DNA of 64,000 nucleotides from a virus (lineage: Duplodnaviria > Caudoviricetes): the IMG/VR virus record IMGVR_UViG_3300026023_000352, positions 28,133 through 92,132 of that record; one strand, given 5' to 3'. The notes below the pieces were generated by a model. That model had not been told where the DNA came from. It ran no database searches and worked only from the letters and a program-made list of their open reading frames with translations. The position numbers and the translations under genes were made by a program. This document shows positions 62,376 through 63,936 of the stretch, in pieces. Every line of letters starts with the position of its first letter. The stretch's first letter is position 1.

Positions 62376-62490
62376 ATGGAGGGGCACCCGAAGGCCCCCT
62401 CTCCCTTGCCCTGCCTGGCCCAGCCACGCCGAGCCGCGCCATGCCAGACCACGCCAGGCTCTGCCCTGCCGTGCCGAGCCATGCCGCGCC
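62376..62490 (-). ncRNA. GGY-NN pentamer unit (17 pentamers) with 3' hairpin
   Basis: Pentamers at 62406-62490, then GAGGGGGCC-TTCG-GGTGCCCCTC. Confidence 0.85.
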
Positions 62491-62524
62491 GTGAAAATAT
62501 AAAAAACCATTATCCTGTAAACAA

Positions 62525-62619
62525 ATGGAGGGGCGCCCGAAGGCCCCCTCACCCTTGCCTTGCCGTGCCCGGCCACGCCGAGCCTGGCCGTGCCCTGCCA
62601 TGCCGTGCCCCGCCCCGCC
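62525..62619 (-). ncRNA. GGY-NN pentamer unit (13 pentamers) with 3' hairpin
   Basis: Pentamers at 62555-62619; same hairpin family. Confidence 0.85.
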
Positions 62620-62653
62620 CCGAGAAGCTGGAAAACCATTATCCTGTAAACAA

Positions 62654-62783
62654 ATGGAGGGGCACCTTCCGGCCCCCTCACCCGTGCTCTGCCGTGCCAC
62701 GCCGCGCCCTGCCATGCCGAACCTCGCCGGGTCCGGCCCTGCCACGCCGCGCCCTGCCGAGCCGCGCCCTGCCGAGCCCGGCT
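62654..62783 (-). ncRNA. GGY-NN pentamer unit (20 pentamers) with 3' hairpin
   Basis: Pentamers at 62684-62783, beginning about 10 nt after the RAMP gene stop. Confidence 0.85.
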
Positions 62784-62793
62784 AAGACAGATC

Positions 62794-63360
62794 CTATTGC
62801 TCAACCACAAACCTACCGAACCTCGGCCGCCAGTCGCAGATGCCTATCTCCTGGCCAGCCGATTGCAGGAAGCTCCGGATGTCTTTCGGGTTGAGCATGT
62901 TCGCTAGATATTTTATGGCGACAGTCGCGCTCCAGTTATTGAACATTGGCCTGGTGCGTATGACGCGAGCCATTCCAACCTTTACAGGAACGCGCAGTCG
63001 GAACTGCTCATCCTCCCAGAGTTCTTCGGGATTGCGAGGACCGTCGTACTCAAGGGGCGCGTGCGCCTCAACGATGAGACCAGCTTTTGCAGCGGGTCCA
63101 CGCTTCTCCTTTTTCGCACCGCCAATCAAGGCGCTTTCTAGTATCTGAAAAGGGATGCACGGCTCGCCATTGAATAGATATAGGCACGAGAACCACTCAC
63201 GCCTCGCAATCTCTCGATGATCAGCGTCGGTCTTTTTTCGCTTACCAGTGATCTCGGCGATGTTCTTGGAGTGGAAGTTTAGAGGGTCGGCTGTCTGGCC
63301 ATTGTGGTGGATCAAAGGCGCGACCCCCGTGATCCTGAAGTCCAATTCTTGGTAACTCAT
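62794..63360 (-). CDS. stand-alone Cas7/RAMP-like protein
   Basis: N-terminal FRITGVAPLIHH strand, PCIP..ILESAL helix, RTRPMFNNW, and C-terminal Gly-rich loop AGQEIGICDWRPRFGRFVV. Confidence 0.8.
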   Translation of the reverse strand: MSYQELDFRITGVAPLIHHNGQTADPLNFHSKNIAEITGKRKKTDADHREIARREWFSCLYLFNGEPCIPFQILESALIGGAKKEKRGPAAKAGLIVEAHAPLEYDGPRNPEELWEDEQFRLRVPVKVGMARVIRTRPMFNNWSATVAIKYLANMLNPKDIRSFLQSAGQEIGICDWRPRFGRFVVEQ

Positions 63361-63661
63361 TTGCCATGCCCTGATGTTGAGTTGTTGGACGGTCTGGTAG
63401 ATTTGATACTATCGGCGCTGCTAAGCCTGCATAACGTTGCTCCCTCTGTTTATTTGTAATAATGTCATGGCATTCGCTGCAAAGAGTTGTTAATGCGTCG
63501 AGGCAATCGAGATGCCACTGACCGCGCGGCGGATACCGGCGATGATGAACCTGTAGTCCATCTGTTGTGTCGCAGAGACGACATCGATTACCGTCGCGCT
63601 CAATTGCTTGCGCGCGGAGTTTCGACCAGCCGCTTGATCCGATGTATTGTTCGTATGTCAT
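63242..63661 (-). CDS. HNH endonuclease overlapping the RAMP gene start
   Basis: YIGSSGWSKLRAQAIERDGNRCRLC...LQVHHRRY...LTTLCSECH. Confidence 0.85.
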   Translation of the reverse strand: MTYEQYIGSSGWSKLRAQAIERDGNRCRLCDTTDGLQVHHRRYPPRGQWHLDCLDALTTLCSECHDIITNKQREQRYAGLAAPIVSNLPDRPTTQHQGMANELPRIGLQDHGGRAFDPPQWPDSRPSKLPLQEHRRDHW

Positions 63662-63669
63662 CCGTTATG

Positions 63670-63786
63670 GATCAGCCGGGGCCGAAGCCCCGACGATCTC
63701 CCTTGCCACGCCCCACCGTGCCCCGCCTTGCCTGACCGAGCCTTGCCGTGCCTCGCCGCGCCCTGACATGCCGAGCCGAGCAAAGA
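63670..63786 (-). ncRNA. GGY-NN pentamer unit (15 pentamers) with 3' hairpin
   Basis: 5' ATCTTTGCTC, pentamers at 63703-63777, then GGGA-GATC..CGGGGC-TTCG-GCCCCG..GATC. Confidence 0.85.
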
Positions 63787-63816
63787 TCAATAAAAGAAAT
63801 TGATTAATGAGAGCTG

Positions 63817-63936
63817 GACCCACACGGGGGTTACACCCCCGCGGGTCTCCCTTGCCGCACCGTGCCTTGTCAAGCCGTACCGAGCCGCGCCCCGCCCAGC
63901 CTAACCGAGCCTTGCCGTACCGAGCCGCGCAAAGAT
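63817..63936 (-). ncRNA. GGY-NN pentamer unit (15 pentamers) with 3' hairpin
   Basis: 5' ATCTTTGCGC, pentamers at 63852-63926, then GGGA-GACCC..CGGGGG-TGTAA-CCCCCG..GGGTC. Confidence 0.85.

Follow-up and report, generated by a model that had tools for sequence, protein, structure and literature searches.

On the minus strand of the window (the 64,000-nt stretch analysed here, which forms part of the 92,132-bp viral contig IMGVR_UViG_3300026023_000352), the features of Table 1 lie in the 5'->3' order vrRNA A, vrRNA B, HNH accessory nuclease gene, vipr and vrRNAs 1-3. The immediate neighbours of vipr are the HNH gene, an iron-permease-like gene and small ORFs, and vrRNA 1 starts 11 nt past the vipr stop codon with no ORF in between. 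An earlier note on this DNA had called the 188-aa gene "lone", which it is not, because the 139-aa HNH ORF, a conserved gene adjoining vipr upstream, separates it from tract B. We identify these features, with high confidence, as a locus of the VIPR (Viral Interference Programmable Repeat) system, carried by a rhizosphere phage of about 92-112 kb that is possibly a phage-plasmid.

Table 1. Features of the vipr locus, in window coordinates and in minus-strand order.
Feature	Position	Strand	Description	Evidence
vrRNA A	63815-63926	-	15 GGYNN units (63926-63852) and GGG-AGA-hairpin tail (~63851-63815)	Phase scan, fold, tail alignment with relatives
vrRNA B	63669-63777	-	15 GGYNN units (63777-63703) and GGG-AGA-hairpin tail (63702 to ~63669), stopping just 5' of the HNH start codon	Phase scan, fold, tail alignment
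HNH nuclease gene	63242-63661	-	139 aa; accessory (vap) gene of the clade	PHROG HNH families, IscB HNH domain, synteny
vipr	62794-63360	-	188 aa; minimal RAMP protein	PDB 36pp_D, phrog_4652, AF2, Foldseek
vrRNA 1	62656-62783	-	19-20 GGYNN units (19 at 62778-62684), GGG-TGA-hairpin tail (62683-62656), T-rich run; terminator-like site 62677-62658	
vrRNA 2	62527-62619	-	13 GGYNN units (62619-62555), hairpin tail (62554-62527), T-rich run; terminator-like site 62548-62529	
Sigma-70-like promoter match	62494-62521	-	TTTACA-16 nt-TATTTT, directly upstream of vrRNA 3	Consensus match only
vrRNA 3	62378-62490	-	17 GGYNN units (62490-62406), hairpin tail (62405-62378); terminator-like site 62399-62380	

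The pentamer tracts and their hairpin tails

Both strands were scanned in all five registers for phase-locked GG[C/T]NN runs. The window contains five, all on the minus strand, and the full contig adds no others; shuffled windows average 0.01 such runs. The five phased units described in the earlier note are thereby reproduced, two of them upstream and three downstream of vipr; its five NN strings were letter-perfect on recheck, and tract 1 comes to 20 units if the extra AGCCG unit of that reading is counted. Over the 79 units of the scan, the entropy of pentamer positions 1 to 5 is 0.17, 0.27, 0.47, 1.82 and 1.92 bits, respectively, and all 16 dinucleotides occur at NN. GGY is nearly invariant by these values, and NN is close to maximum entropy.

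Every tract was also said to end in GGG and a GC hairpin, and GGG, A/T-G-A and a GC-rich hairpin are indeed found after each. The pattern (GGG, A/T-G-A, GC stem, UCC) is kept in 31 tails drawn from the window locus and from loci with 60-73% Vipr identity. In the alignment of these tails, 94% of cells are paired and 20 cells are altered on both sides; compensatory changes occur in four pairs, and the observed covariation was reached by none of 500 shuffles. An Rfam search of 61500-64000 returned nothing relevant. We infer that the GC hairpin and the U-rich stretch set the 3' end of the vrRNA, via termination or via end protection after processing; the covarying tail may also serve as a terminator.

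Slippage does produce GC-rich short-period repeats, and the tracts could on that account be non-functional satellites, or G-rich structures acting at the DNA level, with a RAMP-like neighbour by coincidence. Slippage, however, homogenises units, whereas here GGY is fixed and NN varies almost freely, the register is held over 65-95 nt without indels, and each tract closes with a covarying hairpin. Across 138 unique related loci, moreover, all 223 GGYNN runs share the strand of vipr, and the protein is homologous to one that was solved bound to exactly such RNA. The probability that we leave to this explanation is vanishingly small; the comparative data effectively refute the satellite reading.

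The Vipr protein, its relatives and related systems

The Doudna laboratory described the VIPR system in three bioRxiv preprints of 2026 (10.64898/2026.04.26.720920, 10.64898/2026.04.26.720927 and 10.64898/2026.10.15.759431), with a structure deposited as PDB 36pp. Type II VIPR is known from Escherichia phage SUSP1 and a Pseudomonas fulva prophage, and VIPR has been proposed to be older than CRISPR. The system is thus not new, and the link that the earlier note drew to phage VIPR systems is supported: in a phmmer search of PDB chains, residues 6-187 of the 188-aa protein align with residues 4-188 of 36pp_D, the "SUSP1 Vipr protein", at E 1e-27. The protein also matches phrog_4652 (E 5e-51). Pfam, NCBIfam and PADLOC gave no match and no Cas family; the Vipr family is not yet in those libraries.

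The VIPR cryo-EM paper names H17, R138, D177, W178 and R179 of SUSP1 Vipr as the residues holding G1, G2 and Y3. In the alignment these pair with H19, R137, D176, W177 and R178 of the window protein, and conservation across 61 homologues reaches 90% or more for H19, R137 and R178. SUSP1 R39, K82 and G87 likewise pair with R41, K83 and G88. K33 and K88 are not conserved (A35 and P89 here), and K32 and R87 adjoin those sites. The window thus encodes a homologue of Vipr in which the GGY-binding residues are intact.

In the AF2 model (pLDDT 97.3, pTM 0.90), residues 3-12 and 184-187 form strands, 121-140 a beta-hairpin, and 29-59 and 71-83 helices, which fits the layout of RRM core, G-loop and thumb. 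A RAMP/Cas7 fold had been anticipated, and Foldseek on the model agrees: all PDB matches with E <1e-3 are Csm3/Cas7-type RAMPs. With the Cas7/Csm3 backbone of class 1 CRISPR-Cas (types III and VII), Vipr thus shares the RAMP fold, the RRM core, a glycine-rich loop (GxxDWRPRFGRF here) and the thumb hairpin; both polymerise along a guide RNA, at a period that is fixed. Its sequence identity to that backbone is 9-18% and its TM-score 0.4-0.5; the VIPR guide has a 5-nt period with three of five bases sequestered, in place of the 6-nt period and single flipped base of CRISPR. The window, as had been noted earlier, holds no CRISPR-like repeat-spacer family.

TIGR-Tas (Faure et al. 2025) resembles the present system as a compact, often phage-borne means of RNA-guided DNA binding with split or short guide segments. 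It differs in its protein, which belongs to an unrelated family with a Nop domain and not a RAMP fold, and in its guide, a dual-spacer hairpin in place of a pentamer code. Searches of window positions 2-2229 for a TasA gene, in Pfam and by sequence against the PDB, returned no match.

Vipr homologues were found in 138 phage records, including Felixounaviruses, whose Viprs are about 35% identical to that of the window. The expectation that homologues always neighbour GGY-NN arrays holds in large part: at least one run is present in 90 of the 108 loci having flanks on both sides and in all five isolated phages sampled, but not in every locus. Among the relatives are 80 viral-contig loci.

The contig itself encodes terminase, capsid-protease, portal, endolysin, Rep, ParB and primase, and its first 28 kb hold phage or plasmid genes only. 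An identical Vipr protein is encoded on a second contig of 111,827 bp, and the phage was recovered from rhizosphere metagenomes; none of the sequencing runs listed as containing the locus is an RNA run. Short Logan contigs from four rhizosphere or soil runs are identical to the locus wherever they overlap it. One Logan contig extends 188 nt beyond the window end.

When set beside type II VIPR, the window system shares the homologous Vipr with its GGY contacts, GGY/NN pentamers on the vipr strand, vrRNAs on both sides of the gene, a constant structured 3' tail, a phage setting, and the lack of both a CRISPR array and self-targeting. Several features nevertheless set it apart. In the loci of isolated phages, a gene of 146-190 aa follows vipr at the place where vrRNA 1 begins in the window; here there is no vap1-like DNA-binding gene downstream, and an HNH gene upstream overlaps vipr instead. 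In a quick tree (support 90, unstarred), the Felixounavirus and Pseudomonas phage Viprs form a 9-row HNH-less group apart from the window clade, so that the window Vipr, on the HNH-linked side opposite the Felixounaviruses, falls outside the type II clade by this test. The tail is a simple bulged GC hairpin with a U-rich run, in which a SUSP1-type pseudoknot is not evident, and the tracts have 13-19 units, where published ones have at least 4 and typically 9-16.

With the nuclease-associated types III-V, on the other hand, the locus shares an HNH accessory gene and the canonical GGY/NN repeat. A VIPR preprint shows an HNH vap in its fig. S21, finds that host defence islands are enriched in types III and V, and describes some systems that encode a single vrRNA; the present locus, by contrast, has five vrRNAs and sits in a phage with a full virion module, not in a host defence island. 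We describe it as an HNH-vap nuclease-associated VIPR, tentatively type III as far as the preprint text allows. Taken together, the locus is a genuine and complete VIPR with five guide RNAs and an HNH partner, and an example of the published system, not of a new kind.

The HNH gene upstream of vipr

The last 119 nt of the HNH gene overlap the start of vipr in a different frame. Its product matches PHROG HNH families, among them a terminase-small-subunit family, and the HNH domain of IscB. Residues C27, C30, H39, H40, C61, H65 and D66, which make up the motif CxxC...HH...CxxCH-D, are invariant among 24 HNH homologues. Of 124 unique related loci, 109 have an HNH homologue directly upstream of vipr, and most of the HNH-linked relatives are viral or metagenomic contigs. 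A predicted complex of Vipr with the HNH protein received a score of 0.16 (mark, 0.32); what would tie the two proteins together is their synteny. The conserved and catalytically intact-looking HNH may, as we see it, have been recruited to cut the bound DNA, or to act on it in some other way.

An alternative is that the locus is indeed a VIPR, but that the HNH is an unrelated, free-standing phage enzyme of the homing or packaging type, and that the system is a pure transcriptional silencer as in SUSP1. Selfish or packaging-associated HNH genes are very common in phages, the terminase-small-subunit match would suit such an origin, and silencing by the type II VIPRs characterised so far involves no nuclease. 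Against this, the HNH family is fixed immediately upstream of vipr in the 109 loci mentioned above, which span 40-73% Vipr identity and several phyla, and the two ORFs overlap in many of them. Synteny this constant is atypical of mobile homing HNH genes, and the VIPR preprint itself counts HNH among the vap proteins. We consider an unrelated HNH improbable.

Guide targets and the role of the system

The earlier note had proposed a Cas7/RAMP-like protein that polymerises on GGY-NN repeat RNAs and reads a non-contiguous target. This agrees with the published VIPR, and the window protein is a sequence homologue of the solved SUSP1 Vipr. If the findings on SUSP1 and P. fulva carry over, one Vipr protomer would bind each pentamer and sequester GGY, while the presented NN would pair with double-stranded DNA as NN-x-NN-x, with one skipped base per unit. 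Pairing would be nucleated from the 3' tail, and the resulting filament would block transcription of a rival mobile element.

By the published criterion, a VIPR target lies in another mobile element and matches at least 80% of NN positions under the 1-nt-skip rule. Natural targets were sought by exact-seed scans of IMG/VR (with the ten units nearest the 3' end for guides 2 and 3, and with eight units for all five guides) and of species-representative genomes; imperfect targets would escape such seeds. No target with at least 80% NN match was found in these collections, the best reaching 70%. In IMG/VR, no seed match extended past the seed, guide A excepted. Among 185,579 species genomes, the ten-unit seeds of guides A, 3, B and 1 gave 0, 3, 1 and 1 matches, respectively, in unrelated taxa and with none extending, which is chance level. 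The VIPR loci of 173 relatives, searched as targets, gave nothing above shuffled controls. The target search urged by the earlier note thus yielded one candidate, for guide A in portal genes, and otherwise chance-like seed matches and a contig at shuffled level.

Guide A matches the antisense strand of the portal gene (phrog_104) in seven related viral contigs (L179, L189, L191, L195, L197, L199 and L201). Its ten 3' units match at 20 of 20 positions in six of them and at 18 of 20 in L199, and the skipped bases fall on codon wobble positions. The first four units match nowhere and the fifth only at its first base (1/10 positions), for a total of 21/30. The remaining four guides show no convergence on the seven contigs, whose GC content is 42%, compared with 54% here, and which have no genes in common with the window phage. 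With roughly 38 independent clusters of seeds, an extension of this kind would be expected at p ~0.15-0.5, before the reading-frame argument is considered. Because the match stays below 80%, with mismatched 5' units, no convergence of guides, a gap in GC, no shared genes and this p value, we regard it as a lead only, close to chance.

The vrRNAs might also regulate the phage's own genes or those of its host, and not rival elements. Silencing-type RNA-guided systems could in principle autoregulate, and satellite vrRNAs are reported to redirect VIPR to host decoy sites. Yet no site on the 92-kb contig scores above shuffled guides at a skip of 0, 1 or 2: the best self scores, 57-69% of NN positions, lie at the mean of the controls, and a VIPR preprint likewise reports no self-targets for its systems. 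On the evidence of this contig, such a regulatory role appears very unlikely.

A plausible though tentative alternative to an offensive role against satellites or resident prophages is that the carrier, a temperate phage or a phage-plasmid, uses the system to protect its lysogen from other phages. The locus has an HNH nuclease, and nuclease types III and V are tied by the preprint to antiviral defence; the ParB and Rep genes suggest a stably maintained plasmid-prophage; and the sole candidate target is an essential structural gene of other viral contigs. The defence reading nevertheless has no established target, the portal contigs argue for a different host because of their GC content, and sequence by itself does not separate defence from offence.

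The offensive counterpart is that HNH-linked VIPR is a phage-borne, RNA-guided DNA cutter with a gapped NN-x code, in which the filament finds a gene of a rival element and the co-translated HNH destroys it. We put this forward as a doubtful and somewhat unlikely possibility.

VIPR is an RNA-guided system with a non-contiguous code that has been known for months only, and the present locus adds a clean environmental case with five guides, a covarying hairpin tail and an overlapping HNH gene. The known mechanism of VIPR is unchanged by it. Its practical worth is that of a candidate for tests of VIPR-directed DNA cleavage, and its five natural guides could be used to look for targets in viromes of the rhizosphere. 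The HNH-linked architecture prevails among relatives on viral contigs, which bears on the view of the preprint that nuclease-bearing VIPRs are mostly host defence. If the HNH protein does cut what the filament finds, the reach of VIPR would go beyond silencing and include cleavage, in the context of a virus.

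The Vipr protein and the published VIPR systems

The 188-aa ORF has no match in Pfam, NCBIfam or PADLOC. It does match phrog_4652 (E 5e-51) and, over its whole length, PDB chain 36pp_D, annotated as "SUSP1 Vipr protein" (E 1e-27). A cryo-EM preprint names five residues by which the Vipr of Escherichia phage SUSP1 grips GGY, namely H17, R138, D177, W178 and R179; in the 36pp_D alignment these correspond to H19, R137, D176, W177 and R178, so that all five are identical in the present protein. The non-target-strand clamps of SUSP1 Vipr (R39, K82 and G87) have R41, K83 and G88 as their aligned counterparts. 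With 61 homologues as input, AlphaFold2 gave a model with a pLDDT of 97.3, whose only significant fold matches in the PDB are Cas7/Csm3-type RAMPs from CRISPR complexes of types III and VII (E about 2e-4, TM 0.4-0.5). Together with the SUSP1 match, this bears out the Cas7/RAMP-like assignment made in an earlier note from the sequence alone. At E 1e-3 or better, the family comprises 2,680 cluster representatives.

VIPR (Viral Interference Programmable Repeat) has been defined in three 2026 bioRxiv preprints (10.64898/2026.04.26.720920, 10.64898/2026.04.26.720927 and 10.64898/2026.10.15.759431). In the published systems, Vipr is a minimal RAMP protein, one protomer of which serves each repeat, and the guide RNAs (vrRNAs) consist of 9-16 GGY/NN repeats followed by a constant 3′ tail. 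The target is double-stranded DNA, read with one base skipped between successive variable NN pairs; the R-loop grows from the 3′ tail towards the 5′ end, and rival phages and satellites are silenced transcriptionally. Seven types are recognized, and nucleases are among the products of their accessory vap genes. According to a fourth preprint, VIPR arrays can be recovered from language-model entropies. The mechanism proposed in the earlier note, in which Cas7-like subunits line a GGY-NN guide RNA with a gapped code, is thus correct but not new, since it had already been described in these preprints.

Pentamer tracts, tails and the HNH gene

A register-aware scan of both strands confirmed five strictly phased GG[C/T]NN tracts on the minus strand at 62376-63936, and the same five are the only ones in the window and in the full contig of 92,132 bp, of which the window is 28133-92132; shuffled windows gave 0.01 such runs. 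On re-reading, the five NN strings reported previously proved exact. Across the 79 units, pentamer positions 1-3 are almost invariant (entropy 0.17, 0.27 and 0.47 bits), while positions 4-5 are near random (1.82 and 1.92 bits), with each of the 16 dinucleotides represented.

Features of the VIPR locus and related sites (window positions unless a fetched sequence, L, is named)
Feature	Position	Strand	Remarks
Tract A	63926-63852	-	15 units
Tract B	63777-63703	-	15 units
HNH protein gene	63242-63661	-	139 aa; between tracts B and 1
vipr	62794-63360	-	188-aa ORF; between tracts B and 1
Tract 1	62778-62684	-	19 units
Tract 2	62619-62555	-	13 units
Tract 3	62490-62406	-	17 units
Candidate portal target of guide A	L179:11719-13491		1-nt-skip rule; also in L189, L191, L195, L197, L199, L201
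T-arm-like tail motif	L003:3691-3740		
T-arm-like tail motif	L005:2726-2775, 2861-2910, 4187-4236		

On the 3′ side of each tract, GGG and then A/T-G-A lead into a GC-rich hairpin. Downstream of vipr (tracts 1, 2 and 3), a run rich in T comes after the hairpin, and the site scores as intrinsic-terminator-like; furthermore, a promoter-like site precedes vrRNA 3. When 31 vrRNA tails, drawn from this locus and relatives with 60-73% Vipr identity, were aligned, they conformed to GGG-AGA-stem-loop-stem-UCC, with 94% of cells paired. Compensatory changes occur at four pairs, and none of 500 shuffles reached the observed covariation.

The Cas7-like gene had been described as a lone one, which does not hold, as a second ORF encoding a 139-aa HNH protein also lies between tracts B and 1. 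This protein matches PHROG HNH families and the HNH domain of IscB, and its residues C27, C30, H39, H40, C61, H65 and D66 are invariant among 24 homologues. The 3′-terminal 119 nt of its gene (63242-63360) overlap the start of vipr in a different frame. Relatives with as little as about 33% HNH identity also show the overlap, together with a conserved 'PQR/PQW...R' stretch at the C terminus of the HNH protein, a recurrence that suggests translational coupling.

Relatives, phage context and candidate targets

For comparison, 173 loci encoding Vipr relatives were fetched, 138 of them with unique vipr DNA. Within 2 kb, 223 GGYNN runs were found on the vipr strand and none on the opposite strand. 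As to whether homologues always neighbour GGY-NN arrays, at least one run is present, exclusively on the vipr strand, in 90 of the 108 loci having flanks on both sides. All five isolated phages sampled carry runs (Pseudomonas phages Medea1 and LESphi2, Gordonia phage Trine, Escherichia phage wV8 and Mycobacterium phage LittleE). It should also be noted that the vrRNA tails of Trine and LittleE include a GGTTCGA(N)TCC motif resembling a tRNA T-arm, suggesting that actinophage VIPRs have a different, tRNA-like tail.

An HNH homologue starts no more than 600 nt upstream of vipr in 109/124 loci with room for one, and in 10/10 such loci at 60% Vipr identity or above. The closest relatives, on soil metagenome contigs (68-73% identity), a Roseomonas acroporae contig (65%) and an Azospirillum himalayense contig (61%), have the complete arrangement: vrRNA(s), then HNH, then vipr, then the vrRNA array. 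In a quick maximum-likelihood search, whose sampling is skewed to relatives of the query, the window Vipr falls in a 15-row clade (support 96); 14 rows are HNH-linked and one has too little upstream sequence to judge. In contrast, the Felixounavirus (SUSP1-like), Pseudomonas phage and actinophage Viprs, which group on the other side of the tree (support 90), lack the HNH gene and have a downstream gene instead.

Its large terminase, capsid-protease fusion, portal and long tail genes mark the contig as that of a phage. No host genes occur in the 28 kb before the window (L228, contig 1-20000, and L229), which code for an endolysin, a replication initiator, a ParB-like protein, a RecE-like exonuclease and a primase. 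The ParB and Rep proteins suggest a plasmid-prophage or phage-plasmid lifestyle. No close relative was found among 50,697 phage records; the locus is present in 24 metagenome runs (rhizosphere or soil; 23 studies), and contigs from four of these runs show zero differences from it over the covered parts. Because one run contig continues 188 nt past the window end, the contig end is not the genome end, and further parts of the VIPR locus could lie beyond 64000.

Other features of the window include a 112-aa ORF (61735-62073) that matches the low-affinity iron permease family PF04120 (E 3e-46), an unusual phage cargo convergent with the VIPR operon. At 5530-5657, beside a 326-aa minus-strand ORF, a 17-nt unit is repeated in tandem seven and a half times (92% matches), and these copies could represent iterons or a partition site. 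For two ORFs near the start of the window (2-1075 and 1072-2229), neither Pfam nor a sequence search of the PDB returned a match supporting a TIGR-TasA guide module. Eight repeat copies with a 66-nt (22-codon) period occupy 25100-25669, inside a 395-aa ORF (25008-26195) that has no PHROG match.

Targets of the NN strings were sought ungapped on both strands by the published rule, with NN pairs joined by one wildcard base. No self-target was found in the 92-kb contig and no target in the 173 related loci, and exact-seed scans of IMG/VR and species-representative genomes returned chance-level matches without extension, guide A excepted. For this guide, the ten 3′ units agree with a portal gene (phrog_104), read on its antisense strand, at 20/20 positions in six of seven related IMG/VR contigs and at 18/20 in L199, the seventh. 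The bases skipped coincide with wobble positions, and variation among the seven contigs lies mostly at skipped bases. However, units 1-4 give zero matches and unit 5 only its first base, leaving an overall match of 70%, under the 80% cut-off of the published work. None of the other guides converges on these contigs, which have a GC content of 42% versus 54% for this phage and no genes in common with it. The probability of such an extension by chance is estimated at roughly 0.15-0.5, before the reading-frame argument. The portal gene as a target of guide A is a lead, not a finding.

A proposed mechanism

The data directly support the inventory of parts, the homology, the conservation of the contact residues, the strand-specific link to arrays and HNH, and the structure of the tail. 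By analogy with the published model systems, each vrRNA would be coated by Vipr, one per pentamer, which would sequester GGY and present NN; NN-x-NN-x double-stranded DNA would then be bound starting at the tail-proximal end, and transcription of a rival element blocked. The hairpin and U-run may set the vrRNA 3′ ends, either by termination or by protecting processed ends, and the downstream vrRNAs may be separate transcription units, given the promoter-like site before vrRNA 3. The HNH protein, conserved, overlapping and apparently intact in its catalytic residues, may act on Vipr-bound DNA.

Taken together, the locus is a real, well-formed HNH-linked VIPR on a soil phage. It is mildly noteworthy in that, among relatives on viral contigs, the nuclease-linked architecture is the common one.
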